NCBI GenBank assembly: GCA_025056655.1
Contig: JANWVL010000164.1
Span: forward strand, 661 to 64,660
DNA length: 64,000 nucleotides
Reading direction: 5' to 3'
From: Candidatus Methylacidiphilales bacterium
GTDB taxonomy: Bacteria; Verrucomicrobiota; Verrucomicrobiia; Methylacidiphilales; JANWVL01
Part shown: piece by piece, positions 1,700 through 40,677 of the stretch
How positions within the stretch are numbered: the first letter of the stretch is position 1
Layout of the letters: every line of letters starts with the position of its first letter
Translations under genes and position numbers: made by a program
Notes under the pieces: model-generated
The model's database searches: none
What the model saw: the letters and a program-made list of their open reading frames with translations, nothing else
Told to the model about the DNA's origin: nothing

Positions 1700-4210
1700 A
1701 TGCCCCCAACCCCACACCCTCACGCCCCATCTCCCGCTCCCCCTCCACCACGTCCATCCGACATCCTCCGACAACTCCAGCAATCCCACACCCTTACACA
1801 CGACTCCCTCCAAAAAAAAATCCAACGCGAGCTCTCCTACCTCATCAACCCCTCCACCTCACCAGACTCCCGCCATCCCTCCATTTACCACTTCTCCATC
1901 CATCCCCTACCTTTCATCTTACCAGCAGAAGACTGGCGCACCCTCTCCGAAGCCTTCTCCCAGCGCCTCCGCGCTTGGAATATCGCCCTTACCGATATCT
2001 TTTCCGAACAGTCCCTCATCCGACAACGCATCCTTCCACACCGCCTCATCTACAACGACCCCTCCTACCTACGCCCAATCCTAGGAATCAAACCCATCGG
2101 CGACACCCCCATCCGCATAGCCGCCATCGATTTCGTCCATGATTCCCAAGGCCAATGGCACGTCCTCGAAGAAATCTTCTCCCAACCCTACGGTATCGGC
2201 ATCGCCCTTCATCTAAGACAATCCCTCGGAGAAATCTATACCCGCGAACTCTCCTCACTCCCCATCGAGTCCCCATCCGCCGTCCCAGCACTCATCCAAG
2301 AAAACCTACAAAATTGCGGCCTCTCCTTCTCCCACCGCCCCCGACTCGCACTTCTCACCCTCGGCCCACAATCCCCCTCATACGCTGATCAAGCCATCCT
2401 CGCCCGAATGATAGGCATCCCCCTCATCCAACCCGACGAACTCCTCGTCCTTCAAGGCCAACTCTTCCTCAAAACCATAGACGGCCTCCAACCCATAGAA
2501 ATCCTCCTCCGCTTCATCCCAGCCCAAAATATCGACCCCGTATCCATCCCCTCACAAACCCCACACCAAGGCATCCCCGGCATCACCTCATGCCTCCGCA
2601 AAGGCACTGTCGCCATAGCCAACGCCCCATCCGCCGACCTCCTCCAAAACCGCGCCCTCACCACCTACACCCCACACCTCATCAGACACCTCCTACACCA
2701 ACACCCCATCCTCCCCGACCTCTACCGCGCCCCACTCACCGACATCGACGTCCGCGAACAACTCTTCGACGACTGGCCCTCCTACATCATCAAGCCCACC
2801 CACCCCCACCCCAACACCCCAAGCCTCAACGGCGCCCTCCTATCCCAAGACCAGCGCCGCCACTGGCAGCAAATCATAGAACAAAACCCCTCCAAATGGA
2901 TCATACAAAAAAACCTCCTCCACCACAACCCCCCACACGACCCCATCATCCTCCGCCTCTTCGCCTTAGCCGATCACCACCGCATCACCCTCCTCCCCTG
3001 CGCCCTCACCCGATCCCTCCAACCCCCCCCCACAGACCACACCCACCCCTTCCCCCCCACCCCCATCCGCGACACCTGGATCCTCCAACCCACACCCCAC
3101 ACCCCCACACCCCCGCACCCCGCCCCCCCCACCACACACCACCGCCACCCCATCGAACTCTCCCTCCCCCCTCAAACCCACGAAATCGTCGGAGAACGCC
3201 TCCGCCTCTCCAGCCGCACCGCCGAATCCCTCCTCTGGATCAGCCGCTACCTCACCCGCGCCGCCACCACCACCCAACTCCTCCGCACCCTCCTCCAAAT
3301 CAGAGCCACATCAGACCCACAAACCACCGCACCCAAAACCTGGCAACCCCTCTGGGAAACCCTAGCCGCCGCCACAGGCCACCCCACCACCTACTTCGAA
3401 AAAAACAAACTCACCCACCCCTCCCAACTCTCCCACTACATCCTCCTCTCCCAAGAAAACAACGCCTCCGCCTACCACTCCATACGCCTCGCCCACCAAA
3501 ACACCCTCGCCTCACGCGAATCCATCCCCACCGAACTCTTCACCCTCATCACCGACCTCTACCACCTCCTCCACACCTACAGCACCCAACCCCCCCACTC
3601 CCTCGACCCCATCCTCAACGACCTCTCCCTCCACAACTCCCTCATCCAAACCCACGAACAAATCACCGGCGCCGCCCTCCACCACCTCCTCCGCGACGAC
3701 CCATGGCACTTCTGGAACATCGGCCACCACATCGAACAAGCCATCTTCACCACCATCACCTTCCGCCAACTCATCCTACCCCTCCGCTCCCCCACACAAG
3801 ACCCCTCCCTCATCCACGACACCCTAATCCGCCTCTTCGCCTGCCAATACGCACACCGCAAACACCACCCACACCGCCCCACCCTCCAATCCATAGCCTC
3901 CATCCTCCTCACACTCCCCACATTCCCACGCAGCCTCGCCTTTCACTACCACACCCTCCACCACCACCTCACCACATGCTTCCCCCTCACCACACCCACA
4001 CCGACCACACCCGCCATCCACACCCTACACCACCTCACCACCCTCCACACCCTCCCCCTCCACCAAATGTGCACCCCCAAAAACTCCTCCCTCCCCATCG
4101 CAGACTGGCTCGCCGAAGAGACCCAACACCTCCACCACCTCGCCAACCTCATCACCGACCACCACATCCACCACTACCACACCCACCTCCTCTCCCACAC
4201 CCCCACCTAA
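1700..4210 (+). CDS. Fusion protein: circularly permuted type-2 ATP-grasp domain plus C-terminal alpha-E domain
   Basis: The N-terminal half resembles CP ATP-grasp proteins (GIPLIQPDELLVLQGQLFLKTIDGLQPIEILLRFIPAQNIDP). The C-terminal half carries the alpha-E signature region (SRTAESLLWISRYLTRAATTTQLLRTL). The two are joined by a Pro/Thr/His-rich linker in one 836-aa frame. Confidence 0.75.
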   Translation: MPPTPHPHAPSPAPPPPRPSDILRQLQQSHTLTHDSLQKKIQRELSYLINPSTSPDSRHPSIYHFSIHPLPFILPAEDWRTLSEAFSQRLRAWNIALTDIFSEQSLIRQRILPHRLIYNDPSYLRPILGIKPIGDTPIRIAAIDFVHDSQGQWHVLEEIFSQPYGIGIALHLRQSLGEIYTRELSSLPIESPSAVPALIQENLQNCGLSFSHRPRLALLTLGPQSPSYADQAILARMIGIPLIQPDELLVLQGQLFLKTIDGLQPIEILLRFIPAQNIDPVSIPSQTPHQGIPGITSCLRKGTVAIANAPSADLLQNRALTTYTPHLIRHLLHQHPILPDLYRAPLTDIDVREQLFDDWPSYIIKPTHPHPNTPSLNGALLSQDQRRHWQQIIEQNPSKWIIQKNLLHHNPPHDPIILRLFALADHHRITLLPCALTRSLQPPPTDHTHPFPPTPIRDTWILQPTPHTPTPPHPAPPTTHHRHPIELSLPPQTHEIVGERLRLSSRTAESLLWISRYLTRAATTTQLLRTLLQIRATSDPQTTAPKTWQPLWETLAAATGHPTTYFEKNKLTHPSQLSHYILLSQENNASAYHSIRLAHQNTLASRESIPTELFTLITDLYHLLHTYSTQPPHSLDPILNDLSLHNSLIQTHEQITGAALHHLLRDDPWHFWNIGHHIEQAIFTTITFRQLILPLRSPTQDPSLIHDTLIRLFACQYAHRKHHPHRPTLQSIASILLTLPTFPRSLAFHYHTLHHHLTTCFPLTTPTPTTPAIHTLHHLTTLHTLPLHQMCTPKNSSLPIADWLAEETQHLHHLANLITDHHIHHYHTHLLSHTPT

Positions 4211-4277
4211 CCCCGCGACCCACTTGATTTTTTAACAACACCCCGATAAACCCATCCAACCCACACCCCCACCACCT

Positions 4278-6332
4278 ATGCAACACCCCACCCCCACCAC
4301 AGAACCCCCCACATTCACCACCACCCCCATCGAACACCTCATCGCCAACACCATCCGCATCCTCACCATCGATGCCATCGAAAAAGCCCACTCCGGCCAC
4401 CCAGGCCTCCCCATGGGATGCGCAGACTTCGCCACCATCCTCTGGACCCAATTCCTCCGCCACAACCCCGCCAACCCCCACTGGCCCAACCGCGACCGCT
4501 TCATCCTCTCCGCAGGCCACGGCTCCATGCTACTCTACTCCCTCCTCCACCTCTGCGGCTACCCCCACATCACCCTAGAACAACTCCAAAAATTCCGCCA
4601 ACTCCACTCCCTCACCCCAGGCCACCCAGAAGCCCACGAAACCCCAGGCGTCGAAGTCACCACAGGCCCCCTCGGCCAAGGCACAGGCAACTCCGTCGGC
4701 CTCGCCATCGCCCAAAAACACCTCGCCGCCCTCTTCAACACCCCAGACTTCAACCTCTTCGACCACCGCATCTACACCATCGTCTCCGACGGCGACCTCC
4801 AAGAAGGCATCTCCCACGAAGCCGCCTCCCTCGCAGGCCACCTCGGCCTCGATAACCTCATCTGGTTCTACGACGACAACCGCGTCTCCATCGAAGGCTT
4901 CACCGACCTCGCCTACTCCGACGACGTCCCCACCCGCTTCCGCGCCTACAACTGGCACGTCATCACCATCGACGGCCACAACCACTCCCAAATCCACGCA
5001 GCCCTCCGCGAAGCCCTCACCATCACAGGCCGCCCCACCCTCATCATCGGCAAAACCACCATCGGCAAAGGCTCACCCAAGCTCCAAGGCCAACCCAAAG
5101 CCCACTCCGACGCCCTCGGCCCACAAGAAGTCGCCGCCACCAAACGCGCCCTCGGCTGGCCCGAAGACTCCCAATTCCTCATCCCCTCCCGCGTCACCGC
5201 CTACTTCCAAAAACTCCGCCACGAACTCGCCGCCCAAGAAACCGAATGGAACCGCACCCTACAAGCCTACACCCGCGCCTACCCCCAAAAAGCCGCACTC
5301 CTCAAAAAAATCCAAGAAAAACAAATCCCCACAAACCTCCCCGACCTCCTCCCCCAATTCCAAGCCGGCCAAAACCTCGCCACCCGCAACGCCAGCGGCC
5401 AAATCCTCACCACCCTCTTCGACCACCTCCCCCACCTCATCGGCGGATCCGCAGACCTCGCCCCCTCCACCAAAACCTGGATCAAAACACACGGCTCATT
5501 CCAAAAAAACCACTACCACGGCCGCAACCTCCACTTCGGCATCCGCGAACACACCATGGCCGCCATCCTCAACGGCATCGCCTACCACCGCTCCGGCCTC
5601 ATCCCCTTCGGCGCCACCTTCTTCGCCTTCACCGACTACATGCGCCCCCCCATCCGCCTCGGAGCCCTAAGCAAACTCCACACCATCTACGTCCTCACCC
5701 ACGACTCCATCTTCGTCGGAGAAGACGGCCCCACCCACCAACCCGTCGAACACCTCGCAGCCCTCCGCGCCATCCCGCGCCTCTCACTCATCCGACCCGC
5801 CGACGCCAACGAAACCGCCCAAGCCTGGCTCGTCGCCCTATCCCAACAAGACCGCCCCACCCTCCTCGTCCTCACCCGACAAGACATCCCCACCCTCGAC
5901 CGCTCCAAATGCGCCCCTGCCACAGGCCTCCGCCAAGGCGCCTACATCCTCTGGGAAGCCAATCCCAACGTCCCACCCCAAATCATCCTCATCGGCACAG
6001 GCTCAGAAGTCCACCTCTGCCTACAAGCCGCCGAACACCTCGCAGCAGAAGGCTACGCCCCACGCGTCGTCTCCATGCCCTCATGGGACCTCTTCGAAGC
6101 ACAACCCCAATCCTACAAAGACCACGTCCTCCCCCCATCCATCCCCGCACGCATCGCCGTCGAAGCCGGCATCCGCATGGGCTGGGAACGCTACATCGGC
6201 GAAAAAGGCCTCTTCATCGGCGTCGAACGATTCGGCGCCAGCGCCCCCCACACCCGCCTCCAAGAAGCATACGGGCTCACAGTCCCCCACATCCTCTCCA
6301 AAACCCGCGCCCTCCTACCCCCAACACCCTAA
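4278..6332 (+). CDS. tkt: Transketolase
   Basis: Carries IEKAHSGHPGLPMGCAD (TPP-binding HSGHPG motif) and THDSIFVGEDGPTHQPVEHL. The 684-aa length is typical. Confidence 0.95.
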   Translation: MQHPTPTTEPPTFTTTPIEHLIANTIRILTIDAIEKAHSGHPGLPMGCADFATILWTQFLRHNPANPHWPNRDRFILSAGHGSMLLYSLLHLCGYPHITLEQLQKFRQLHSLTPGHPEAHETPGVEVTTGPLGQGTGNSVGLAIAQKHLAALFNTPDFNLFDHRIYTIVSDGDLQEGISHEAASLAGHLGLDNLIWFYDDNRVSIEGFTDLAYSDDVPTRFRAYNWHVITIDGHNHSQIHAALREALTITGRPTLIIGKTTIGKGSPKLQGQPKAHSDALGPQEVAATKRALGWPEDSQFLIPSRVTAYFQKLRHELAAQETEWNRTLQAYTRAYPQKAALLKKIQEKQIPTNLPDLLPQFQAGQNLATRNASGQILTTLFDHLPHLIGGSADLAPSTKTWIKTHGSFQKNHYHGRNLHFGIREHTMAAILNGIAYHRSGLIPFGATFFAFTDYMRPPIRLGALSKLHTIYVLTHDSIFVGEDGPTHQPVEHLAALRAIPRLSLIRPADANETAQAWLVALSQQDRPTLLVLTRQDIPTLDRSKCAPATGLRQGAYILWEANPNVPPQIILIGTGSEVHLCLQAAEHLAAEGYAPRVVSMPSWDLFEAQPQSYKDHVLPPSIPARIAVEAGIRMGWERYIGEKGLFIGVERFGASAPHTRLQEAYGLTVPHILSKTRALLPPTP

Positions 6333-6434
6333 AAACACCCACACCCACCCACCCCCCCAAAACCCTCCCCCAAACCCCCATCCCACAGCCGTTTTAGAAT
6401 TCACATTCCACACACCTCATCTAGATGAAAAACG

Positions 6435-7220
6435 ATGAAGATCATCCGACACCCGCCCACCATGCAGCGCACAGCCCTGCAATGGCGCAAAGAAGGAAAA
6501 CAAATCGCCCTCGTGCCCACCATGGGCGCCTTACACCCAGGCCACGAAGCACTCATCAAAAAAGCCCGTAAACAAGCCGACATCCTCATCGTCAGCATCT
6601 ACGTCAATCCCACCCAATTCTCCGCAGGAGAAGACCTCCACCGCTACCCCCGCCCCTTCCGCACCGACTGCCAAAAATGCCGCCTCTGGGACGTAGACAT
6701 CGTCTTCGCACCCAAAAATCTCTACGCCCCCGATCACTCCACCTGGGTAGAAGAACTCTCCCTCAGTCAAGGCCGCTGCGGCCCCTTCCGACCAGGACAC
6801 TTCCGAGGCGTCACCACCGTCGTCGCCAAGCTCTTTCTAATCTGCCAACCCCACCTCGCCTTCTTCGGCCAAAAAGACGCCCAACAACTCGAAGTAATCC
6901 AAAGAATGGTGCGAGACCTCCACTTCCCCATAAAAATCATCCCAGTTGAAACCATCCGCGATACAGACGGACTCGCCTTCAGCTCCCGCAACACCTACCT
7001 AAGCCCAACAGAAAGACAAAAAGCACGACAATTTGCCGCCGCACTCCAACAAGCCATACACCATCCCAATCCCATATCCTGGTTCAAAAAAGAAATCTCA
7101 CGCCTAAAAGGTGTCCGCCTAGACTACGCCGAGATCGTCAACAATCGACTATGCGCCGCAGTGCACATCGGCAAAACCCGACTCATTGACAACGTAGCAA
7201 CCACACTCAAAAAAAAGTAA
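6435..7220 (+). CDS. panC: Pantoate--beta-alanine ligase
   Basis: Carries VPTMGALHPGHEALI (canonical VPTMGxLHxGH) and GQKDAQQ. 261 aa. Confidence 0.92.
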   Translation: MKIIRHPPTMQRTALQWRKEGKQIALVPTMGALHPGHEALIKKARKQADILIVSIYVNPTQFSAGEDLHRYPRPFRTDCQKCRLWDVDIVFAPKNLYAPDHSTWVEELSLSQGRCGPFRPGHFRGVTTVVAKLFLICQPHLAFFGQKDAQQLEVIQRMVRDLHFPIKIIPVETIRDTDGLAFSSRNTYLSPTERQKARQFAAALQQAIHHPNPISWFKKEISRLKGVRLDYAEIVNNRLCAAVHIGKTRLIDNVATTLKKK

Positions 7221-7223
7221 ACC

Positions 7224-8243
7224 ATGAGACTGAGACGAGCGCGACTTTTCTCAAGACTCCACACATCCTGCCTCGCGCTCCTCATCCTATGCCCCACAGC
7301 AACCGCCAGCATATGGCAAGTCGTCCGCGTAGGCCCACTAGAATACGTCACACTAAAATCCTTTTGCCGCTTCTACTACTTCCCCTACGGAGAAGGCCCC
7401 CTCTCAGACACCTTCACCGTCCAAAACACCAGCTTCCGCCTCGTCTTTCGCCGAGATAGCCAAATCGTCCGAATCAACGAAGTCAACTACTACCTCTCAA
7501 GCTCCATCATAGATCATCCCGCAGGATGGCTCATCCCCAAAACAGACATCACAAAACTCTTTGACCCCATCTTCCGACCTCAAGCCATCCCCATCCGCAG
7601 ACCCGTGCGAGGCGTCGTAATCGATCCCGGCCACGGCGGCTCCGACCGCGGCGCCACCGGACTAAACGGAGCCTTAGAAAAACACTACACACTAGACACT
7701 TCATTACGACTCGAAAAAATCCTACGCGCCGCCGGCGTTCGCACCGTCATGACGCGCCGCAGCGATGTCTTCGTCGAATTACACGAACGAACCCGATTCG
7801 CACGCAACTTCGCAGGACACATATTCGTAAGCATCCACTACAACTACGGCTTCAACCGCCAAGCCCGCGGAGTCGAGACCTTCGCCATGGCCCCTCGCGG
7901 AGTCGCCTCCACAGCCGTAGGAGAATTCCCCTCTCGCGCCGACCACATAAAACAAATCGGAAACGAAAACGACCCCCTAAATATCCTACTAGCCCACCAA
8001 GTCCATAGACAAATCGTGCGCCTCTTCCCCGGTGACCCCGAAGCCGATCGCGGCGTCAAACGAGCGCGCTTCGTAGTCCTGCGCACAAACTACCTCCCCG
8101 CCATCCTAGTAGAAGGCGGCTTCCTCACCAACCGCATGGATCTACGCCTTGTAGATAACCCCGTCTATCGCCAGCGCCTAGCTGAGGCAATCGCCACCGG
8201 CATACTCAACTACATACGATTAAACCAGCCAACCCAACCCTAA
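7224..8243 (+). CDS. N-acetylmuramoyl-L-alanine amidase (Amidase_3 family) with signal peptide
   Basis: Carries the IDPGHGGSDRGA motif, SIHYN, and a C-terminal VEGGFLTN. The N-terminal hydrophobic leader ends in ATA. Confidence 0.88.
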   Translation: MRLRRARLFSRLHTSCLALLILCPTATASIWQVVRVGPLEYVTLKSFCRFYYFPYGEGPLSDTFTVQNTSFRLVFRRDSQIVRINEVNYYLSSSIIDHPAGWLIPKTDITKLFDPIFRPQAIPIRRPVRGVVIDPGHGGSDRGATGLNGALEKHYTLDTSLRLEKILRAAGVRTVMTRRSDVFVELHERTRFARNFAGHIFVSIHYNYGFNRQARGVETFAMAPRGVASTAVGEFPSRADHIKQIGNENDPLNILLAHQVHRQIVRLFPGDPEADRGVKRARFVVLRTNYLPAILVEGGFLTNRMDLRLVDNPVYRQRLAEAIATGILNYIRLNQPTQP

Positions 8244-8256
8244 ATTAACCCCCAAG

Positions 8257-9369
8257 TTAAAGAGTCTGCAAAAAGCGCACAAGCTGCTCACGATTCGGAC
8301 TATTAGCATGCCGAACGTAAAACCCAGACGCAGCAACCGCCAACTGCAAAGAATGCTGTAACCCCAACCCAAGCAACCGCCCAATAACAAAACCAGCGTT
8401 AAAATGATCCCCCGCACCCGTGCTAATTTTAGGTTTAGCAGTATAAGGCCCCTCAATAAAAGTTTCCCCCTGTGCATCCGCCCCAGCAGCATACTTTACA
8501 GGATGAATCACCACAGTGTGAAGATTAAGCTTCTCCCGAATAGCCGCTGCCAATGCCGCCGTGCCCTTTGGATTAGCCGGCGTCTTCTTAAGACGCAAGA
8601 CTCGCGCCACATGCTGCCCCTCACTCTCGTTCAGACCAAGGATAACATCATTGCTCTCTTGAAACTCCGATATAATTTTCAGCGCCGCCAACAAATCAGC
8701 ATCCAGACGCTTAGCTGGATCAGCCAAATCAAAAAACATCAGCTTCCGTGGCTCATCTTTCACGGGTGGAAATTCACTCAAAAGTTTCTTCCATATCGCC
8801 GACATATGCGGAAGCATGGTCCAGTTCACCATCCCAATGAAATGAGCTTCCTTCCACATCTTCTTAAAAGCCGCCTCACCGACTCGCTTCTTAATATTAT
8901 CCCACGTGACCTCATTAACGTTGCTATGTTGACCAAACAACAATTTCCCATCGTTAAATTCAAACGCCTGAGTCAATGCAGGCTCACCAATCGGAATCAC
9001 CCTTGCACGCTTGCTAAATTCATGAAAAACAGGATGCACAGTATCCTTACCCACAATCCCAATATAATTCACCGGTGCCCCAAGCGTGCTCAATGCAAAC
9101 GCCATCAACGGCCCGTTCCCCCCCATGCGAACTGACTGCTGCACGAGCTCCATGTTGGCGCTCTTACCCGCTGCCGCCACTATTGCAGAACCAAACGACT
9201 TGATCGTTGCATACGGAACGTATTTTGTAGCAGACTGGCGCTGGGCCACGACCTGATAAATCTCATCAACAAAACCATCAAAACCCAACAGACATTGATA
9301 TTTCAAAAGCTGCGCTCGTGAACCAATCAGACGCTCTGCCGTTTGCCGGGCGATACGAGAATCACTCAT
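8257..9369 (-). CDS. Ribokinase/PfkB-superfamily sugar kinase (ADP-dependent-kinase-like)
   Basis: The C-terminal STGAGDHFNAGF matches the PfkB GAGD anion-hole motif, and there is an MGGNGPLMA glycine motif. Substrate unknown. Confidence 0.6.
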   Translation of the reverse strand: MSDSRIARQTAERLIGSRAQLLKYQCLLGFDGFVDEIYQVVAQRQSATKYVPYATIKSFGSAIVAAAGKSANMELVQQSVRMGGNGPLMAFALSTLGAPVNYIGIVGKDTVHPVFHEFSKRARVIPIGEPALTQAFEFNDGKLLFGQHSNVNEVTWDNIKKRVGEAAFKKMWKEAHFIGMVNWTMLPHMSAIWKKLLSEFPPVKDEPRKLMFFDLADPAKRLDADLLAALKIISEFQESNDVILGLNESEGQHVARVLRLKKTPANPKGTAALAAAIREKLNLHTVVIHPVKYAAGADAQGETFIEGPYTAKPKISTGAGDHFNAGFVIGRLLGLGLQHSLQLAVAASGFYVRHANSPNREQLVRFLQTL

Positions 9370-13105: not shown

Positions 13106-13147
13106 CTCCTCACAAAATCACATAACCCTCAACACGGAGGACACACC

Positions 13148-13411
13148 ATGGCACACAAAAAAGGTCAAGGAAGCACCAAAAACGGCAGAGACAGCGCAAG
13201 CAAACGTCTCGGCGTCAAAATCTATGGCGGCCAAATGGCCACCGCTGGAAACATTATCTACCGCCAGCGCGGCACCGTCTATCATCCAGGCAAAAACGTA
13301 GGCATGGGACGCGACTTCACCCTCTTCGCACTCATCGACGGAATTGTCCAATACGACAAAAACAACCGTCGCATCCACGTCCTCCCCCCTACCCCCACCA
13401 CCGCAAACTAA
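13148..13411 (+). CDS. rpmA: 50S ribosomal protein L27
   Basis: [24 protein letters not shown] is the canonical L27 N-terminus. It directly follows rplU. Confidence 0.95.
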
Positions 13412-13551
13412 CCCCCACACCGCCTGCCTCCCCAATCGGTAACACCCCCCGTTGCCGAATAACACACCACCCACACACCCCTTGATGCCAGCTAGCAGCT
13501 TGCATTAAGGCCCCACTTCCATACCCTTCAATCTCATAACCCCCACATACC

Positions 13552-14664: not shown

Positions 14665-14668
14665 AACT

Positions 14669-14995
14669 ATGGAAACTCTTCTACACATCACCCCTCAAGC
14701 CGCTCAACAAATTCTCAAACTTACCGAATCCAAACCTAAACTAGGCCTCCGCCTGCACATCGCAAAAGGAGGCTGCTCAGGCCTAGAATACCACATGAAT
14801 CTCACCGAGCCCGCCACCAATGACTACATCATTGAGTCCCACGGCGCTCGAGTCTATCTTGATCCTCAAGCCAAACCCTACCTCCAAGGCGCTACCCTCC
14901 ACTACGAAGATGCCCTTACAGGCGCCGGATTTCGTATCCGCAATCCCAATGCCACCCAGACCTGCGGGTGCGGCGCGTCCTTCACCACCCAATAA
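14669..14995 (+). CDS. HesB/IscA-family iron-sulfur cluster insertion protein
   Basis: 108 aa, with GGCSGLEY and the C-terminal CGCGASF cysteine triad. Confidence 0.88.
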   Translation: METLLHITPQAAQQILKLTESKPKLGLRLHIAKGGCSGLEYHMNLTEPATNDYIIESHGARVYLDPQAKPYLQGATLHYEDALTGAGFRIRNPNATQTCGCGASFTTQ

Positions 14996-15002
14996 ACAAC
15001 CC

Positions 15003-15800
15003 CTACCCCATGTCCCCTCCCCGTGGCAAACTCTGTGCAAACTCCCACCACTCGTCAGGAGCCAGCTCCTCAGCACGACAATCAAGATCGCATGCGAAAA
15101 TCGTCCGCAACTGTTTCCTTCGATACTGAAAAGCCCGCCGCACAACGGCCTGAAACCACTCAAACTCTGGATCCCGCGCCTGTTCCCGTATCCTTTCAAA
15201 ACGCAACACAGCAGAATGAACCTTAGGCCTCGGATAAAAAAGCTGGCATGGCACTCGCCGCACAAATTCAATCCTATAAGCCCTCTGCAAAATCACCGAT
15301 GGAGCCCCATAATTCGGCGTTCCAGGACGTGCTCGGATTCGGTCCGCCAGCTCTTCCTGCACCATAAACACCAAAGTCCGCGGAAGCTCTGCCGCTCTGA
15401 GAACAGAAAAGAGAATCGGCGTTGAAATATTATAAGGCAAGTTTCCGACTATCGCAGCCCAAGACTGCTCCATAGCCCGCGGCAAGTATTCCAAAATATC
15501 GGCCTGAACGAGATGAAAATTCCTGCACTCAACAAACCGGTCCTGCAGATATCGACTCAACCCAAGATCAATCTCCACCGCATGGACTTCCACCCCCCTA
15601 CTCAACAAATGCTCCGTAAGCGCCCCAAGCCCTGGCCCGACCTCTAAAACTCGGCCAAATGGCTGCTTCTGCAAACTCTCAATAATCACATCAGCAATCA
15701 ACCGGCAGACGTTCTCATCATGCAAAAAATTCTGACCAAATCGCTCCAGAGGCCTTAACCCCCGACTCAGGAGTGCCTGCCTGATCTCCCTCAAGTTCAT
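15003..15800 (-). CDS. rsmA: 16S rRNA (adenine1518/1519-N6)-dimethyltransferase
   Basis: Carries FGQNFLHDENV and the SAM motif VLEVGPGLGALT. 265 aa. Confidence 0.9.
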   Translation of the reverse strand: MNLREIRQALLSRGLRPLERFGQNFLHDENVCRLIADVIIESLQKQPFGRVLEVGPGLGALTEHLLSRGVEVHAVEIDLGLSRYLQDRFVECRNFHLVQADILEYLPRAMEQSWAAIVGNLPYNISTPILFSVLRAAELPRTLVFMVQEELADRIRARPGTPNYGAPSVILQRAYRIEFVRRVPCQLFYPRPKVHSAVLRFERIREQARDPEFEWFQAVVRRAFQYRRKQLRTIFACDLDCRAEELAPDEWWEFAQSLPRGGDMG

Positions 15801-15861: not shown

Positions 15862-16416
15862 CTAGTCTTCCCCATTTTTAATTGCATCCAGTCTATCCTT
15901 AATCTCCGATCGCTCCGAGGCACTCAGATAGTCAATAAAAAGACGCCCCTGTAAATGATCAAACTCATGTTGCACAGCACGGGCTAACAAACCCGTAGCC
16001 TCATAATTCACCACCCTACCCTCAAAATCATATGTTTTAAAACGCACTCGCTTCGACCGGCTTATCATAAGCGAAAGATTAGGAAAACTCAAACACCCTT
16101 CACTCTCTCTAAGCTTAGACTTCGTCAACTCAACCTCTGGATTGATCAAATAAAGCGGCATCTCCCGCTCAATCTCCACCTCTTTCCCCTCTCGCCACAA
16201 ACGACTAGGCCGATCCTCTACACCGCGAACGTCAATAACTGCAAGTTGCAAAGCGTAGCCGACTTGTTGAGCAGCAAGCCCCACCCCATTCACACCCCTC
16301 ATCGTCAACAACATCTCCTGCAACAATCTCCGCCACCCCTCGCTCAAAGGAAACGTCACCGGTTTCCCCACCTCACGCAACACCGGATTCCCATACCTGA
16401 CAATCTTCAGTGCCAT
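15862..16416 (-). CDS. def: Peptide deformylase
   Basis: Has the three deformylase motifs: GVGLAAQQVG, EGCLSFP and HEFDHLQG. Confidence 0.93.
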   Translation of the reverse strand: MALKIVRYGNPVLREVGKPVTFPLSEGWRRLLQEMLLTMRGVNGVGLAAQQVGYALQLAVIDVRGVEDRPSRLWREGKEVEIEREMPLYLINPEVELTKSKLRESEGCLSFPNLSLMISRSKRVRFKTYDFEGRVVNYEATGLLARAVQHEFDHLQGRLFIDYLSASERSEIKDRLDAIKNGED

Positions 16417-17561: not shown

Positions 17562-19147
17562 TTCACTGGTTTCAACGCCGCCTGCTCATTCAAAAAGGCC
17601 TTGCAACTGAGAAGCAGCGCCGCTCCCAAATCCCACGCGTCCTCTTTGAGCGCCTCGATAACTCCCAAAACCTACGCCTACTGATTTGTGCCCTCTTCAC
17701 CCTCTTCATCCTCTATTTTAGTTGGAACGCCACACCCGCACCCCTCCTAACTCTCAGCGAGACCCGCATCCTCACACTACTAGCATTACCGCTCACCTAC
17801 TTACTTTTTCGCATCTTGCTTCCCCCTGTTCATGCTACAAACTCACGGCTCTTTCTCCACCTTAGCGCAATAGCCCTAAATATCTTGGCTCACCAAGCCA
17901 CTCATTACTGGTTCCGCGCCGAGACACAAGACACCCTTCTCTCCGCAGTCTACTACACCACCATCCCCTTTGCTCCCCTTCTCCTCACAGTTCTTTTAGG
18001 GCAACCCGCTGGCATTTTTGCAACCCTCACTACAAGTTATTTCTCCACCCTCCTGATTGAGCCTACACTGAGCTTTCTCGTCCTCAACCTCATCTCTGGA
18101 CTCCTCGTCACGACATTCAGCCACAATATCCGCAAACGCAGCGACATCGTTCGTGCCGGCGCCATCGCAGGAGCCACGACATCAGCCATAGCTTTCATCC
18201 TCGCATTCATGCAGCCCTACAATTCCATCCTTCTCTTCGGACAACCCATCGCCTGTTTCGTCATCGGCATCTTCACCGCGATGGTCGTCAACAGCCTCCT
18301 CCCTCTTATCGAATCCCTCTTCAGAATATCCACCAACATCTCATGGATCGAGCTATGCGACCTCAATCACCCCCTTCTTCGAGAACTTTCCATCCGCGCA
18401 CCCGGCACCTACCAACATTCCCAAATGGTCGCCAACCTCGCTGAATCCGCCGCCCACGCCATCGGAGCAAACGGCACCCTCTGCCGCGTAATGGCCTACT
18501 TTCACGACATCGGAAAAATGACCAAACCCGAATACTTCACCGAAAACGCAGGCTCCGACAATCCGCACAAAGAACTCACACCGACCATGTCCGCACTCAT
18601 CATCATCTCCCACGTAAAAGAAGGCCTAGACCTCGCCATCAAACACAAACTCCAACCAGAAATCCTCGACGCCATCCAACAACACCACGGCGACTCCATC
18701 GTCTATTACTTCTATCGCCGCGCCCTACAACAAGCCGAAGACGCACGCCTTGGCTCGCTAATCATGGACATGCCAGATGAACCCACCGACGAGATCTCAC
18801 AAGAACCTTTCCGATACCCAGGTCCACGCCCACAAACCAAAGAAATCGCCATCGTCTCGCTGGCTGACGCCATCGAGGGAGCTTCCCGATCCCTACAAAA
18901 ACCCACTCCTCAACGGATCGAAGACCTCGTCCAAGATATCATTCGCCAAAAAATCAACCAACAACAACTCACAGACTGCCACCTCACCTTCAACGAACTA
19001 GAAATCATCAAGGACTCCTTCACCACCACCCTAAAATCCATCCTCCACTCCCGCATCGCATACCCAAAGCATGAAAAAAACAATCCCTCACCTCCACATC
19101 CACCGTCATCCCCAAAGTCCACGACTCCCGCTTCGACCTCTTCGTAA
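17558..19147 (+). CDS. HD/HDIG-domain protein with 7TM N-terminal region (PgpH/YqfF-like)
   Basis: Multiple N-terminal TM helices followed by the HD domain (YFHDIGKM, QQHHGDS). It lies between phoH and ybeY, as in many bacteria. Confidence 0.82.
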   Translation: MIHWFQRRLLIQKGLATEKQRRSQIPRVLFERLDNSQNLRLLICALFTLFILYFSWNATPAPLLTLSETRILTLLALPLTYLLFRILLPPVHATNSRLFLHLSAIALNILAHQATHYWFRAETQDTLLSAVYYTTIPFAPLLLTVLLGQPAGIFATLTTSYFSTLLIEPTLSFLVLNLISGLLVTTFSHNIRKRSDIVRAGAIAGATTSAIAFILAFMQPYNSILLFGQPIACFVIGIFTAMVVNSLLPLIESLFRISTNISWIELCDLNHPLLRELSIRAPGTYQHSQMVANLAESAAHAIGANGTLCRVMAYFHDIGKMTKPEYFTENAGSDNPHKELTPTMSALIIISHVKEGLDLAIKHKLQPEILDAIQQHHGDSIVYYFYRRALQQAEDARLGSLIMDMPDEPTDEISQEPFRYPGPRPQTKEIAIVSLADAIEGASRSLQKPTPQRIEDLVQDIIRQKINQQQLTDCHLTFNELEIIKDSFTTTLKSILHSRIAYPKHEKNNPSPPHPPSSPKSTTPASTSS

Positions 19148-19499
19148 TTACTGGCTACGCTCTCTCACCCTCCTTCCTCACACCCGCACAGCCCTCCCCC
19201 CCACTGTCTCCATCCACCTCGTCTCTCTGCAGACAATAACCGCCCTTCACAAACGCTTCCTAAACGACCCCACCCCCACCGACGTCATCACCTTCCACCA
19301 CGGCGAAATCTTCATCTGTCCTGCTGTCGCCATAGAAAATGCTCCACACTACAACACCTCTCCCATCGAAGAGATCGCATTATACGGCCTTCACGGCCTT
19401 CTACACCTATGCGGCTTCACCGATACCACCCCCAGCAAACGCCGCATCATGCACCGCATCCAAAATTCCATCCACAACCAAATCCGTGAGCTCCTATAA
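19071..19499 (+). CDS. ybeY: rRNA maturation endoribonuclease YbeY
   Basis: Carries PTDVITF and the zinc motif HGLHGLLHLCGF (HxxxHxxxxxH-type). The only in-frame ATG gives a 77-nt overlap with the upstream gene. Confidence 0.82.
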   Translation: MKKTIPHLHIHRHPQSPRLPLRPLRNYWLRSLTLLPHTRTALPPTVSIHLVSLQTITALHKRFLNDPTPTDVITFHHGEIFICPAVAIENAPHYNTSPIEEIALYGLHGLLHLCGFTDTTPSKRRIMHRIQNSIHNQIRELL

Positions 19500-22545: not shown

Positions 22546-22565
22546 ACTAGACCCTGTTGCTGCTG

Positions 22566-23792
22566 ATGAAGGTTGAAGTCATCAATACAGGCAGTGAACT
22601 GCTTTTAGGCCACACAATTAATACGCATCTAGCTACTCTTGCAGAAGCTCTTTTTCCGCTAGGGCTCAGGATCCAGAGGCAAACCACAGTCCCAGACGGC
22701 AATGCAATTCGTGATGCGGTCGCTCAATCGCTAGAGCGTTCTTCCTACATCATTATCACAGGCGGATTAGGCCCAACCTCAGACGACCTCACGCGCGAAA
22801 TCGTCGCAGACTTACTCGCAGCTCCTTTGGAATTTTCCGATGCCGTCTGGAGGCAGATAGAGGCTTTCTTTAGTCGCCGTAATCGCCAGCCTACGGAAAA
22901 TAACCGCCGTCAAGCATACGTTCCCCAAGGCGCTGAGCCGCTTCCAAACCCACACGGAACTGCTCCAGGCCTTTGGTTCGATACAAAATGGAAAGGTGAA
23001 GAGAGAACGTTGATTTTGTTACCGGGCCCACCGCGTGAGCTCAACCCCATGCTCTACGACCATGTGATTCCAAGGCTAAGAAGCCGCCTACAACTTCCGC
23101 AGCCGATTCAAGCAATTTGGAGCCTCGTCGGCCTTGGCGAGTCCGTCGTAGCAGAGGCTGTAGAAGATTTTCTCAAAAATCTCTCAGGTGTGGAGTATGG
23201 TTATTGTGCACGGAATGGCCAAGTGGACATTCGTCTTGTCGCCAAAGAAAATAAGCCGATTGAAAAGGCAGCAGCATTTTTTAGTGAAAAATTCGGAGAA
23301 CGCGTTTTCCGAAGCGACGGAAAACCTTTAGAGTTTTGGATTGTTCAGATGGCAAGAGAGCGCGGCTTGACGTTGGCACTAGCTGAATCTTGCACGGGCG
23401 GCTTGATTGCTCATCGGTTGACGAATGTCCCCGGTGCCTCAGAAATTTTACGGGGCGGATGGGTCGCTTACACAGTCGAGATGAAATTGGAGATGTTGAA
23501 GGTGCCAGCTCGATACATCGAGACATACGGTGTCGTATCGTCAGAGGTCGCGAGCTCAATGGCCTCTAAAGCCCGAGAAATAGCCGATACAGACTGGGCT
23601 GTGGCGACCACGGGTTACGCTGGTCCTTCGGGAGGAACGGATCGTGATCCTGTGGGAACTTGCTACGTCGCTTGGTCCAACAGGAGAGGCACAACTGAAG
23701 TGGAACGTCTCTTTTTTCCAATGGATCGTGAAAGTTTCAAATTGAGAGTTGCGCAGTGTGCTCTGGATGGGCTTAGGATGAGGATAGGATGA
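22566..23792 (+). CDS. cinA: CinA-family competence/damage-inducible protein (MoCF-binding domain plus nicotinamide-nucleotide amidase domain)
   Basis: Carries MKVEVINTGSELLLG, GGLGPTSDDLT and a C-terminal ESCTGG PncC-type motif. I trimmed the TTG start in the ORF track to the ATG at 22566. Confidence 0.88.
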   Translation: MKVEVINTGSELLLGHTINTHLATLAEALFPLGLRIQRQTTVPDGNAIRDAVAQSLERSSYIIITGGLGPTSDDLTREIVADLLAAPLEFSDAVWRQIEAFFSRRNRQPTENNRRQAYVPQGAEPLPNPHGTAPGLWFDTKWKGEERTLILLPGPPRELNPMLYDHVIPRLRSRLQLPQPIQAIWSLVGLGESVVAEAVEDFLKNLSGVEYGYCARNGQVDIRLVAKENKPIEKAAAFFSEKFGERVFRSDGKPLEFWIVQMARERGLTLALAESCTGGLIAHRLTNVPGASEILRGGWVAYTVEMKLEMLKVPARYIETYGVVSSEVASSMASKAREIADTDWAVATTGYAGPSGGTDRDPVGTCYVAWSNRRGTTEVERLFFPMDRESFKLRVAQCALDGLRMRIG

Positions 23793-23834
23793 GCTTCTTA
23801 ATCAAGGTCTCAGAAGGCTGGCCTTACACCACAA

Positions 23835-24668
23835 TCATGATTTAGAAGCAGCCTTGAGGCATATCTGGGGCGCAAGGAGCGCAAATAAGATAGCGATATG
23901 GGTAAGGACAATCGTCGCTCCTGTGGAAGTATCGAGGGCTGCAGAGAGCACGACCCCGGCGGCGCCTCCAATAAGGCCAATCAGAGCAGCCATGAGAAGC
24001 ATGTGACGGAAGCTCCGCGCGATGAATCGTGCAGAGGTTGCCGGTATGACGATGATCGCAGTGAGAAGAAGTGCCCCGAGCATTTTGAGGCACACCGTGA
24101 TCATCGCTGCAATCATTACGGCAAAGAGAAAATTTAACCGTGTGACGTTCAACTGGCGCGCTCGGGCCATGTCAGGTTGCACAATGAGCATGAGAAATCG
24201 TTCGCTGTAGTAAGCAACAAAAATAAGGATCGCAATCAGTAAGCCCGCTTGGATGAGGAGATCGGCCGGTGTGTTGGCATAGATGTCGCCGAAGAGCATG
24301 CCTTCGAGAAGGCGCGCTTTGCCTTGGTATTGAATCAGAATGATGCCTAGCGCGACGCTTCCTGTGAGGGAGAAGGCGATGATGGTGTCGGGACGAAGTT
24401 GCGTGTGAGTGAAAAGATATGCCATGCAGATAGCCATCAATAGGCTATAGAAGAGCACTACTAGAAGCGTCGGGAAAGTTGTGGAGAGGGCGTCTTGTAT
24501 TAAAAGGCCTAGAGCTAGGCCCGTTATTGTGGAATGCGCGATGGCATCGCTGAAAAATGACATGCCGCGCAGAGTGATAAAAACTCCCATGAGTGCGCAT
24601 GCGGGGCCGAGAATTACCATGGATAGAAGCGCAAGCCGCATGAAATCGTGTTCAAAAATCTCAAGCAT
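23835..24668 (-). CDS. znuB: Metal (Zn/Mn) ABC transporter permease, ABC-3 family
   Basis: 277 aa and polytopic, with FMRLALL and SFFSDAIAHS motifs typical of ZnuB/TroD. It overlaps the ATPase gene by 8 nt. Confidence 0.75.
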   Translation of the reverse strand: MLEIFEHDFMRLALLSMVILGPACALMGVFITLRGMSFFSDAIAHSTITGLALGLLIQDALSTTFPTLLVVLFYSLLMAICMAYLFTHTQLRPDTIIAFSLTGSVALGIILIQYQGKARLLEGMLFGDIYANTPADLLIQAGLLIAILIFVAYYSERFLMLIVQPDMARARQLNVTRLNFLFAVMIAAMITVCLKMLGALLLTAIIVIPATSARFIARSFRHMLLMAALIGLIGGAAGVVLSAALDTSTGATIVLTHIAILFALLAPQICLKAASKS

Positions 24669-25419
24669 GGCAACAAGGGTGAGTAGAAGGAGGCGGCGCG
24701 CTCCAGCCGTAAAGGGAGGAGAGAATGTGTTCTCTCAACATTTCCGATGCGTCACCTAAGGCAAAGTGAGAACGATTTAGGCAGAGGATTTTTTTGGCAA
24801 TTCGGCTGATCCAGTGAAGGTCGTGGCTTACGACGATGAGACTGAGCCCGCTATCGAGAATTTCACGTTTGAGGATATCTTCGAGTGCCGTTTCTTTTGC
24901 GGGGTCAACTCCGGTGGTAGGTTCATCTAAAATGAGCAGATCTGGATTTTGAATGAAGCTTGCTGCGAGCATCACGCGTTGAAGTTCACCCCCTGAGAGC
25001 CGATCGAGGCGCTTGTGAGCGATCGGGTGGAGGAGAAAACGTCGGAGGATATCTTCGATGTGTGAAGAGGTAGTAGAGCAGTGGAAGGGGCTGAACGTCC
25101 CGCTGCAGACTTGAAGCCATTCAAAGACTGTGACAGGGATGTGTCGGTCATCGAGAAGACGTTGAGGAAGATAACCGAGGCGCGGCGAACCTTGGATTTC
25201 GACATGGCCACTCGTGGGTTTAATAAGACCAAGAATGACATGCAGGAGGGTTGTTTTCCCTCCGCCGTTTGGGCCGATAATTGCTAGGATGTCGCCTTGT
25301 TGGATGGTGAGGTTGATCTTTTGGAGGACTGTCTCTTGAGCCCAACCAGCAGTGACGTCGGTGAGTCGAATCTGCCAAGGAGTAGGTGTAATTTTTGTCG
25401 AAGAGAGCTCTACTGCCAT
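24661..25419 (-). CDS. znuC: Metal ABC transporter ATP-binding protein
   Basis: Walker A GPNGGGKTT, signature LSGGELQRV and Walker B LLILDEPT. It overlaps both neighbours, which is an operon arrangement. Confidence 0.78.
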   Translation of the reverse strand: MAVELSSTKITPTPWQIRLTDVTAGWAQETVLQKINLTIQQGDILAIIGPNGGGKTTLLHVILGLIKPTSGHVEIQGSPRLGYLPQRLLDDRHIPVTVFEWLQVCSGTFSPFHCSTTSSHIEDILRRFLLHPIAHKRLDRLSGGELQRVMLAASFIQNPDLLILDEPTTGVDPAKETALEDILKREILDSGLSLIVVSHDLHWISRIAKKILCLNRSHFALGDASEMLREHILSSLYGWSAPPPSTHPCCHA

Positions 25420-26339
25420 GCTTTTTTGAGAACTCGAAGGTTGTTTTCCATTGCATCGATGTATGCGTCGGGATGAGGTTTACCCGTTTCAATGGTGTCG
25501 AGAGAGGCTATCCGTGTGCGTGTTTCTCTTGAGAGAGTTTCTAAGAGCTTCGGGGGATAACCTACTTCAGTAAAGATGACCTGAACTTGATTTTGACGAA
25601 TGATTTCAATCAGTCTTGCTACACGCTTCGGCGATGGGGACTGATGCGGGAGCTGCTCTACAAATCCAAGATAACGGATGTGATAGCGCTTGGCGAAGTA
25701 AAGAAATGAATTGTGAAAAGTGAGCAGGGTCTTTTTTTTGAGGGGCGCAAGTGCATTTTGGAAATCCTTATGTAATTTTTCTAATTGTGCAAAGTAAGTA
25801 GCAGCGCGTGTTTGATAGTAAGATTTGTTGTCAGGATCTTTTTCGATGAGCGCTTTGAGGATGTTTTCAGCTTGTTGTTTCGCAAGCAGTGGATCTAGCC
25901 AGACATGTGGATTGGGGCCGTGATGGTGGTGATGACGTGCAGCTCCGCCGTCATCTGCATGAGAATGCGTGCACCCTTCTAGGGCAAGATCATGATCGTC
26001 GAGTGTCTGAATGCCACGGCTGGTGTCTATGATGGAGATCGTTTTTTTTGCTGAGCGTGTGTAGTCTTCGATCCAGGGTTCTAGCTGTATGCCGTTGATG
26101 AAAATCAGATCAGCGTTGTGAAGCTTTCGTAGGTCGCTGGGTTTTGGATGATAATCGTGCAGACCCACATTGGGAGGAACGAGTTGATGAACAGTTGCTC
26201 GGTCGCCGCAAATACTGAGTGTGTGAGCGGTGAGAGGCAGGATAGTGGTGATGATTTGTAGACGCGCTGTGGCATAAGATTGTGACGACAACAGGAGAAT
26301 TCCTATAAGACTAGGCCAAATCGCTAGCTCTGGTTTCAT
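25410..26339 (-). CDS. znuA: Periplasmic metal-binding protein, ZnuA-like, with His-rich loop
   Basis: Cluster-9 SBP pattern (HDYHPKPSD, PHVWLDP) with a His/Asp-rich loop HSHADDGGAARHHHHHGPNPH. The start is set at MKPELAIW (26339), which gives a signal peptide. Confidence 0.75.
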   Translation of the reverse strand: MKPELAIWPSLIGILLLSSQSYATARLQIITTILPLTAHTLSICGDRATVHQLVPPNVGLHDYHPKPSDLRKLHNADLIFINGIQLEPWIEDYTRSAKKTISIIDTSRGIQTLDDHDLALEGCTHSHADDGGAARHHHHHGPNPHVWLDPLLAKQQAENILKALIEKDPDNKSYYQTRAATYFAQLEKLHKDFQNALAPLKKKTLLTFHNSFLYFAKRYHIRYLGFVEQLPHQSPSPKRVARLIEIIRQNQVQVIFTEVGYPPKLLETLSRETRTRIASLDTIETGKPHPDAYIDAMENNLRVLKKAWQ

Positions 26340-26390
26340 GAGGGACGAGAATATGTGATGGCTGAAATAAATGCAAATGATTTGCATTTA

Positions 26391-27167: not shown

Positions 27168-27179
27168 GTAAAATTAAAA

Positions 27180-28490: not shown

Positions 28491-28536
28491 ATCGCAAGTG
28501 TTAGCTTACGCGCCTATTTTATGGCAAGACGACGAT

Positions 28537-29049: not shown

Positions 29050-29070
29050 GGGAAAGCAACATAACGTTAT

Positions 29071-29113
29071 TATCAAACGCAAACGCAGGAAAAACTATAT
29101 CAAACGCAAACGC
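29071..29113. repeat. Two exact copies of a 16-nt direct repeat in a divergent intergenic region (possible operator)
   Basis: tatcaaacgcaaacgc occurs at 29071-29086 and again at 29098-29113, 27 nt start to start. It lies between the divergent genes ending at 29049 and starting at 29150. Confidence 0.6.
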
Positions 29114-29149
29114 GAGCAGTTCAAGCTCCGCTTCCAAAAAAACTAACTC

Positions 29150-29602: not shown

Positions 29603-29735
29603 CTCTACTGCTTTTGCAAAATGCTTCTACTGAAAGAACCCGATATCACTTAATCCAAAAAAATTAGAAAAAAGTTTGCCATTTAATCCCTCATCCCTAA
29701 ATCTATGCTTACTCTACGAACTGCCCCCAGACCCT

Positions 29736-30663: not shown

Positions 30664-30715
30664 CTAATCTGCTTCTACCATCTGCACTCTTTTTTGATCT
30701 AAGCTTCTCACAGAC

Positions 30716-33203: not shown

Positions 33204-33221
33204 TTTCCAAGAAAGTCTGCG

Positions 33222-36948: not shown

Positions 36949-37010
36949 GAATTAAAAATGTCGCATACAAACATTGTTTGTCAAGCAATTGGATTTTGTA
37001 AATCGTTGAT

Positions 37011-40070: not shown

Positions 40071-40071
40071 T

Positions 40072-40656: not shown

Positions 40657-40677
40657 TGCTCGGCAGGCTCTCCTGCT

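Follow-up and report, generated by a model that had tools for sequence, protein, structure and literature searches.

We analysed a 64,000-nt stretch of DNA from a Candidatus Methylacidiphilales bacterium (Verrucomicrobiota; positions 661 to 64,660 of contig JANWVL010000164.1, assembly GCA_025056655.1), referred to here as the window, with a focus on its transketolase gene, tkt, and on the strand composition around it. tkt lies at 4278-6332 on the + strand, where one open reading frame (ORF) of 684 codons plus TAA spans the exact interval. The product is covered over its full length by the Pfam domains Transketolase_N, Transket_pyr and Transketolase_C, which are the N-terminal, pyrimidine-binding and C-terminal domains. 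It closely matches solved structures (PDB 8cip, E=1.5e-230, residues 17-680 aligned) and keeps the GHPG and GEDGPTHQ motifs, which bears out an earlier note, made from the letters of the sequence alone, that had read the gene as a true transketolase. The closest named homologues belong to Methylacidiphilales and other Verrucomicrobiota, with identities of 57-67%. Upstream of tkt lies a gene for a circularly permuted ATP-grasp / alpha-E protein (1700-4210, +), and panC and an Amidase_3 gene follow downstream (6435-8243, +).

Codon usage in tkt comes close to one codon per amino acid, as the earlier note had claimed. Third positions number C521 A138 G21 T4, and only 25 of the 684 codons end in G or T, 18 of them the obligatory ATG and TGG; the remaining seven are GAT (twice), AAG, AAT, GGG, CCG and CCT. 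ATG and TGG aside, the G/T-ending codons among the first 270 are exactly the three that had been counted by eye, GAT at codon 32, GAT at codon 192 and AAG at codon 268. Four-fold degenerate sites hold C.86, A.13, G.01 and T.00. The effective number of codons (Nc) is 22.8 in tkt, 26.1 in the ATP-grasp gene, 33.3 in panC and 35.0 in the amidase gene, so that the gene and its neighbours all stay below the ordinary range of more than about 40. In the other 52 genes of the window, 45% of codons end in G or T, against which the tkt count has a binomial P = 6e-135, and resampling the tkt protein with window-average synonymous usage gave an Nc of 55.0 +/- 1.8 (minimum 49.2). With tkt as query, pattern-based scans of genome and metagenome contigs found none but distant tkt genes (<=55% and <=62% identity); these served as a baseline, and the close relatives of the window were obtained by protein searches. 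Across 59 tkt genes of other bacteria, the G/T-ending fraction ranged from 0.32 to 0.58 and the lowest Nc was 28.6, compared with 0.037 and 22.8 in the window. An independent Logan assembly of SRR15826902 matches window positions 3135-9332 with 1 mismatch in 6198 nt, and the codon collapse is confirmed as real and not an artefact. The window sequence was also found in the NCBI metagenome-assembled genome (MAG) GCA_033577315.1, on contig JAVQYG010000002.1 from ~14,824.

To describe the surroundings of tkt, we profiled + strand guanine-cytosine (GC) skew at third positions (GC3 skew) in 1-kb bins. The profile is a smooth wave with at least five robust sign changes in 74 kb (the window plus 10 kb to its left) and graded amplitude between them. 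It stands at -0.95 at 3-5 kb, -0.43 at 10 kb, -0.81 at 13 kb and about -0.7 up to 21 kb, turns to +0.54 at 26 kb and back to -0.53 at 30 kb, passes about 0 at 35 kb, rises to between +0.66 and +0.87 over 36-47 kb (lower at 40-42 kb), and then runs from -0.69 at 54 kb through about 0 at 56-58 kb to -0.94 at 62 kb. A further domain lies within the 10 kb that adjoin the window on its left (locus L169): across five genes its skew climbs from -0.11 to +0.92, and at a divergent gene pair it switches abruptly to -0.30. The skew also changes inside single genes: by quarters, a ligase gene runs through -0.31, -0.18, +0.01 and +0.06 (regression p = 5e-4), while metG goes from -0.51 to +0.02 (p = 8e-4) and secA from -0.73 to -0.36 (p = 6e-4).

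On this basis the window was divided into domains. Domain A (1-23800), which contains tkt, has a C/A-rich + strand, carries genes on both strands and decays inside secA. At its peak, the ATP-grasp gene has a skew of -0.99 at four-fold sites (GC4 skew), is skewed at codon positions 1 and 2 as well (-0.47 and -0.52) and encodes a protein that is 30% His+Pro+Thr; panC and the amidase gene, with GC4 skews of -0.89 and -0.87, form the downstream shoulder. In domain B (23800-28500; znuBCA, lpxA and lpxC-fabZ, all on the - strand), the + strand is moderately G-rich, with skew of up to +0.57, and in domain C (28500-35915) it is moderately C-rich, reaching -0.70 at 30 kb and fading to about 0 in the ligase gene (33222-35927). 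The + strand of domain D (35915-48650) is strongly G/T-rich, with GC4 skew from +0.70 to +0.94 and a dip at 40-42 kb. Its - strand genes, namely frr, a Metallophos gene (37706-38434), lpdA (42825-44231), queH, amt (44936-46456) and a DUF309 gene, use C-ending codons, and its + strand genes (corA, tsaD, a radical SAM gene and the ORF at 46741-48078) use G/T-ending ones. Domains E and F (48650-64000) again have a C-rich + strand, with peaks of -0.89 at 54.4 kb and -0.94 at 62 kb; between them, at 56-58.6 kb, the skew is close to 0, and the edge of this trough lies within metG. The last peak holds the strongest true mirror of tkt, a gene for a 655-aa membrane protein with no family match (60976-62943, -; sense strand G/T-rich, GC3 skew +0.89, Nc 30.0). 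It also holds the 5' part of glyS (63069-64000, +), which runs past the window end and is a second housekeeping gene collapsed as far as tkt (Nc 23.3; third positions A68 C216 G21 T5). These two genes are divergent, yet they lie within one skew domain.

The asymmetry belongs to the DNA strand and to the position along it, not to the gene or its orientation. Across the window, GC content ranges from 0.43 to 0.63 and GC skew in 2-kb intervals from -0.65 to +0.50. The spacers upstream (4211-4277) and downstream (6333-6434) of tkt both have a GC skew of -0.78, and a spacer in domain D (46457-46740) reaches +0.83. The - strand genes of domain A, encoding ketohexokinase (Khk), a peroxiredoxin, an ABC ATPase, an FtsX permease, KsgA and a deformylase (def), are real and use G/T-ending codons, as do genes elsewhere in the window for CorA, TsaD, the radical-SAM enzyme, CYTH, MetRS, a histidine kinase and an inositol monophosphatase (IMPase). 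The earlier note was right that such mirror usage exists, but its example on the opposite strand, 46741-48078, is a + strand ORF like tkt. This ORF, with a near-threshold filamentous-haemagglutinin N-terminal domain, owes its mirror composition (GC3 skew +0.80, Nc 39.2) to a domain in which the + strand is G-rich, whereas real opposite-strand mirrors within the tkt domain are the ketohexokinase gene (8257-9369, -), ksgA (15003-15800, -) and def (15862-16416, -). At four-fold sites and in spacers, a G+T-rich strand faces an A+C-rich complement regardless of gene orientation, and the + strand skew runs on unbroken across genes of both orientations. By regression, domain sign explained 76% of the variance in per-gene + strand skew and orientation alone ~0%. 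A model combining a uniform strand term with an orientation term was rejected, since its strand term would need opposite signs in different domains. Nc tracks the absolute GC3 skew (Spearman rho = -0.88, 52 window genes) rather than expression class, a distinction that the note had proposed to draw: the ribosomal protein gene rplU has an Nc of 39, compared with 26 for the ATP-grasp gene. The codon collapse of tkt is the coding-sequence record of an extreme, kilobase-scale strand asymmetry and no adaptation of codon usage.

The four bases are not affected in one and the same way. GC4 skew and its adenine-thymine counterpart (AT4 skew) are partially coupled (r = -0.57), G going with T and C with A. 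The absolute skew climbs with local GC content at four-fold sites (r = 0.69), and therefore the net effect is an enrichment of C on one strand. T is nearly gone only in the strongest zones: at 2000-8000 it is nearly eliminated from the + strand (AT4 skew +0.6 to +0.96), whereas at 50000-55200 the + strand is depleted of G and yet rich in T (AT4 skew -0.07 to -0.31). From this contrast, at least two substitution processes with different reach seem to be involved. A search for oriented repeated 10- and 12-mers resembling uptake signals or Chi returned merely C-rich words driven by composition.

The direction of change was examined by comparing tkt with its closest orthologue (85% identity; locus L082). 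At third positions of identical amino acids, differences leading to the window sequence greatly outnumber their reverses for T>C (105 vs 1), G>C (35 vs 0) and G>A (19 vs 0), and the exchange between A and C is symmetric. To polarise amino-acid replacements, we used the consensus of 118 orthologues at columns conserved to at least 70%. This gave 125 lineage-specific replacements in the window tkt, against 8 and 9 in two control orthologues, and the single-base changes behind them were G>A (16), A>C (14), G>C (11) and T>C (6), with each reverse change seen 2-4 times. On the branch leading only to the window tkt, the balance was C +19/-3, G +2/-11 and T +3/-11, without such a trend on the relative's own branch. 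These counts show a directional substitution bias that is still acting in the lineage, with T>C, G>C, G>A and, for A less so, A>C on the C-rich strand.

The description of the tkt bias as largely synonymous in the earlier note does not hold, because the replacements are directional and protein composition shifts with them. Genes of the window with C-rich and with G-rich sense strands differ in His (5.0 vs 1.4%), Pro (8.2 vs 4.3%), Thr (7.3 vs 3.2%) and Val (3.8 vs 10.9%), so that amino-acid content follows the strand, with His, Pro and Thr on one side and Val, Gly and Glu on the other. By these orthologue and composition comparisons, the strand asymmetry reshapes proteins.

We then compared the window with a relative in which gene order is shared (locus L167 in GCA_053502375.1; gltX 74% identical, other orthologues mostly 57-82%). 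A block of seven genes, gltX, AP_endo, LPG, cca, divIC, CYTH (-) and metG (-), has the same order and orientation in both. From gltX to metG, the + strand GC4 skew is +0.38, +0.54, +0.52, +0.05, -0.66, -0.81 and -0.92 in L167 and -0.19, -0.63, -0.57, -0.72, -0.89, -0.65 and -0.38 in the window. Three genes have opposite signs, the rank order is altered, and in L167 the sign flips within a co-oriented gene array. The direction of synonymous differences between the two loci likewise reverses between AP_endo/LPG/cca and metG. This comparison indicates that the skew landscape is lineage-specific despite shared gene order. Synteny is interrupted elsewhere. In L167:6548-10001, ybeY is followed by a peroxiredoxin gene, a GT4 glycosyltransferase gene and gltX, whereas in the window ~30 kb (19500-49400, from secA to the ORF at 48776) lie between ybeY and gltX; the skew of the window is continuous over this ybeY|secA breakpoint. 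In L082, synteny is lost directly after tkt, and the skew there falls from -0.61 to -0.04.

In relatives whose genomes are ordinary, C is mildly preferred over G at third positions of the sense strand. The genome paper on Methylacidiphilum infernorum describes a normal GC-skew origin, and the extreme skew is thus not general in the order. A separate observation concerns a distantly related Methylacidiphilales MAG (L084:10001-15969; GCA_035948935.1, DASZIP010000022.1), where a 6-kb island consisting of tkt, ABM, SurA (-) and an aminotransferase gene stands in an otherwise ordinary locus. Its + strand has 74-88% C at four-fold sites and its tkt has an Nc of 26.1, with unskewed spacers and a skew in SurA that fades along the gene. 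The island may be a different, codon-level effect or a weaker form of the same thing, and it was not used as support. The genes dnaA and dnaN and the dif site were not found in the window or its 10-kb left extension, and no tRNA or tmRNA genes were found in ~98 kb (the window, L169, L167 and L082).

The best reading of these results is local, strand-specific mutation pressure, which we consider probable. In general form it is well supported: in each domain, one strand would be driven to C (and A) and its partner to G (and T), and all freely varying sites, whether four-fold sites, spacers or tolerant amino-acid positions, would converge on the same bases. A gene with a C/A-rich sense strand, such as tkt, glyS, the ATP-grasp gene, amt or lpdA, would then be left with almost only C- and A-ending codons, and a gene read from the other strand with the mirror set. 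The driver would be strand-specific mutation, most probably damage (deamination or base loss) to whichever strand is repeatedly left single-stranded. If C and A are deaminated on the exposed strand, its partner would show G>A and T>C, and base loss or uracil excision followed by C-inserting bypass or repair could contribute G>C, T>C and A>C. The polarity, with G going with T and C with A, is that of known asymmetries from single-strand damage (PMC5291525, PMC4316638). That the domains are graded, two-signed and drifting suggests local control of exposure, which may persist or reinforce itself. Candidates would be R-loops, which are favoured where the RNA is G-rich, or other transcription- or replication-linked exposure favoured by existing skew; this step is at the level of a guess. 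Such local, self-reinforcing exposure would produce domains of either sign with graded edges. A fuller form of the idea is that kilobase domains of near-saturated, opposite strand composition arise either from self-reinforcing strand-specific hypermutation (for example, R-loop or other single-strand exposure combined with C-inserting bypass) or from non-canonical replication with many local initiation or strand-displacement zones, and that they drift independently of gene order while remodelling proteins. This we offer only tentatively.

Several observations sit uneasily with mutation pressure through strand exposure. The exposure mechanism itself is a guess. Deamination alone yields only transitions and cannot give 86% C, so that G>C and A>C call for the assumption of C-inserting bypass. 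All five robust sign flips fall where gene orientation switches, in such a way that the sense strands to either side are both C-rich, and C-rich sense strands occur in about two thirds of the genes (about 42, compared with about 20 with G-rich ones). Both patterns hint at some connection with transcription or with past inversions, and the roughly 2:1 excess or the association with domain edges could reflect selection against G-rich transcripts or inversions. A gene of the uracil-DNA glycosylase (UDG) superfamily (L169:8157-9104) is found ~1.6 kb beyond the left end of the window, where a strongly G-rich domain has its sharp edge; this organism is therefore probably able to excise uracil, which bears on deamination models. 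The four-fold sites of tkt (-0.99) are also more extreme than the tkt spacers (-0.78), and selection for mRNA or DNA structure could conceivably contribute at synonymous sites.

One alternative to local mutation pressure is replication-associated strand bias of unusual strength, combined with inversions and translocations that flip old skew; on this view, the segments at 23.8-28.5 kb and 35.9-48.6 kb would have been inverted. Bacterial strand bias usually has this polarity, G with T (PMC5291525). The edges of both putative inverted blocks are convergent on the left and divergent on the right, the arrangement expected if segments of a mostly + oriented background were inverted, and rearrangements do occur, as the loss of synteny after tkt in L082 and the ~30 kb between ybeY and gltX illustrate. 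However, a replication bias should keep its sign along a replichore, where five robust changes were found in 74 kb, and collinear blocks of relatives should keep their relative skew unless inverted, and their gene rank order under uniform pressure, neither of which is seen in the gltX-metG block, with its three opposite signs, changed ranks and flip inside a co-oriented array. The gradual change inside single genes and the unbroken skew over the ybeY|secA breakpoint are equally hard to reconcile with inverted segments, and if the G-rich strand were the leading strand, about two thirds of the genes would be head-on, including secA, obg, rplU, tkt and glyS. Inversions may contribute, but because of the comparison with L167 they cannot be the general explanation, and we consider this account unlikely. 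Transcription offers another route to the same edges. A difference in mutation or repair between template and non-template strands, by which strongly transcribed units, with read-through over antisense neighbours, would set domain polarity, fits the flips at divergent and convergent pairs with C-rich sense strands on both sides and the excess of C-rich sense strands. It also agrees with the sharp onset of several domains at a gene start with decay downstream (rightwards from 1.0-1.7 kb, leftwards from 48.6 kb) and with the mild C preference on sense strands in relatives with ordinary genomes. Yet orientation alone explains ~0% of the variance, the strongest mirror gene and glyS are divergent within one domain, and gltX, AP_endo and LPG are G-rich on the sense strand in L167 but C-rich in the window. 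Francino and Ochman are said to have described the bacterial transcription bias as C>T on the non-template strand, which would predict the opposite sign for most window genes. A transcriptional origin is accordingly judged improbable.

The remaining alternatives concern single genes or segments. Under translational selection, tkt would be highly expressed and its codons would be those best served by the tRNA pool. Genes with high expression commonly prefer C-ending codons, and the tkt of the distant relative L084 reaches an Nc of 26.1 beside unskewed spacers. Selection of this kind should, however, favour the same codons in all strongly biased genes and be limited to synonymous coding sites. 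Instead, tkt and glyS use C/A-ending codons while the gene at 60976-62943 and the IMPase gene use G/T-ending ones, mirror sets occur in real genes on the other strand, spacers share the bias, and amino-acid replacements run in the same direction. rplU is less biased than the ATP-grasp gene, and the bias grades smoothly over neighbours of unrelated function. Because of the mirror genes, the spacers and the amino-acid changes, translational selection is excluded as far as we can judge, its remaining probability being very small. A mosaic of horizontally transferred segments, strongly and weakly skewed according to donor, would accommodate the sharp variation in GC content and skew along the window, and some weakly skewed genes (the ligase fusion, a methyltransferase and a hexapeptide transferase) are plausibly accessory. 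It is nonetheless quite improbable, given that core genes cover the full skew range (gltX -0.1, metG -0.35, secA -0.6, obg -0.8, tkt -0.92), orthologues are syntenic with relatives, gradients run within genes and there is no known donor of such composition. Low skew as a marker of foreign genes was ruled out, since gltX and metG are themselves low. As for a recoded gene, a chemically converted library or an assembly error, the uniformity does look designed, as the earlier note had remarked, and G>A alone would resemble bisulfite conversion. Against this, the same sequence occurs in the NCBI MAG and in the Logan assembly, reading frames and catalytic motifs are intact, and T>C is no conversion artefact. 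The bias is concentrated at synonymous sites, beyond what sequencing errors could target; intergenic DNA shares it. Neighbours grade smoothly, and diverged natural relatives carry graded versions. A strict design is also at odds with the mixture of C- and A-ending codons and the seven exceptions in tkt, which leaves an artificial origin with next to no chance.

In known bacterial cases, too, codon usage can be set mainly by the DNA strand, G+T against A+C, as in Borrelia burgdorferi, Chlamydia, Lawsonia intracellularis and Ehrlichia canis. McInerney (1998) and Lafay (1999) reportedly derived such strand-specific codon usage from replication bias, and the third-position GC skew of these genomes amounts to a few tenths at most. 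Both four-fold sites and amino acids are affected in them (PMC2671203, PMC2089121, PMC3023944, PMC5291525). Their sign is constant per replichore and flips only at the origin or terminus, in contrast to the repeated changes in the window, which further differs in an absolute GC4 skew of up to 0.99, in the change within genes and in the disagreement between collinear relatives. In amplitude, the window is closer to mitochondria. The sense strand of vertebrate mitochondrial DNA is A+C-rich, with G nearly absent at free sites. The Galdieria sulphuraria mitochondrial genome holds the record genome-wide GC skew, 0.74, read as damage to a long-exposed single strand, and its four-fold sites exceed the average skew, amino acids are distorted and the substitution rate is raised (PMC4316638). 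As in the window, antisense genes in mitochondria keep the strand composition. However, mitochondrial genomes are small, unidirectionally replicated and of one polarity, whereas the window is part of a bacterial chromosome (a 175-kb contig) in which domains alternate, and in Galdieria G goes with A instead of T. Under mitochondrial-type exposure, skew at free sites should grow with the time for which a strand is single-stranded, counted from a defined origin; graded ramps exist in the window, running both ways from several centres.

Eukaryotic R-loop zones show a kilobase-scale G versus C strand asymmetry comparable to that of the window. Ginno et al. (2012) are said to have linked GC skew to R-loops. 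In CpG-island promoters and immunoglobulin switch regions, the displaced G-rich strand is single-stranded and prone to deamination, and skew and R-loop formation favour each other (PMC4245955, PMC10030826). There, the G-rich strand is the non-template strand; in the window, judged by gene orientation, about two thirds of the genes have C-rich sense strands, so that the G-rich strand would mostly not be the non-template strand of the dominant transcript. The skew N-domains of mammalian genomes (Touchon, Huvet, Arneodo) reportedly combine gradual slopes with sharper jumps, independent of individual genes, and the window resembles them in this respect. They extend over hundreds of kb to Mb with an amplitude of a few percent and need many replication origins, and we know of no bacteria with origins every 10-20 kb. 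The skews in a paper on 'GC skew peaks' in gene transfer agents (GTA) are of about 0.03, and a paper on gene-strand bias proved to have no bearing on the pattern. In Creative Commons-licensed PubMed Central papers and bioRxiv preprints, we found no description of kilobase-scale, sign-alternating, near-saturated skew in a bacterial chromosome, and nothing similar reported for Candidatus Xiphinematobacter or Ca. Didemnitutus. The window shares the logic of strand-biased mutation with the known cases and its amplitude with organelles, but lacks a replichore-constant sign; no bacterial strand bias that we found described is nearly as strong or as local.

The cause of strand asymmetry, whether replication, transcription, repair or selection, has been debated for decades on signals of a few percent. 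A signal that is near-saturated, local, changing in sign and different between collinear relatives lets these rival causes predict sharply different things within one genome. It would also mean that mutation pressure alone can push codon usage to an Nc of about 23 in essential genes and shift protein composition three- to four-fold (His, Val) without destroying function. On such genomes, codon-based inference of expression or horizontal transfer, the detection of origins and inversions by GC skew, and composition-based binning would misbehave.

Gene finding is affected as well. Between 1700 and 6332, the three + frames contain 3, 15 and 5 stops in 4.6 kb, compared with 20-88 in a weak-skew stretch. 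Because stop codons are nearly absent from the C/A-rich strand, gene callers yield long false ORFs in alternative frames, such as 2590-4227 (545 aa), 5246-6397 (383 aa) and, in the stretch 42825-44246, the ORF at 43128-44246 (antisense to lpdA). In the Logan record, the gene caller had broken up the 3' end of the ATP-grasp gene, giving five short ORFs on the minus strand. Three greedy ORF calls, 36929-37684, 38440-38979 and 63221-63760, were rejected as wrong-frame products of stop depletion and replaced by frr, an EamA-like gene and glyS. The longest-ORF rule also missed or mis-framed small genes, on the + strand rpmA (L27), an IscA/HesB-like gene and ybeY (13106-13551, 14665-15002 and 19125-19487) and on the - strand frr and the EamA-like transporter gene (~37100-37700 and ~38435-39068). 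queH, for epoxyqueuosine reductase (44256-44900, -), fills an apparent 704-nt spacer; its mechanical ORF runs on to 45278, with a Pro/Arg/His-rich false N-terminus that overlaps amt. In domain D, a 194-aa ORF with no family match (40072-40656, +) has a skew of -0.37, opposing both neighbours, and may be mis-called or recently inserted.

Among the other genes, the ATP-dependent DNA ligase encoded at 33222-35927 (+) carries a fused N-terminal beta-CASP/RMMBL metallo-hydrolase domain, and the two halves may differ in history because the skew fades along the gene. An LpxC-FabZ fusion (27180-28490, -) adjoins lpxA and the znuABC operon. Homologues of CinA and DprA, which belong to competence and DNA processing, are encoded at 22557-23792 and 31932-33203, and uptake of single-stranded DNA is therefore possible in this organism.

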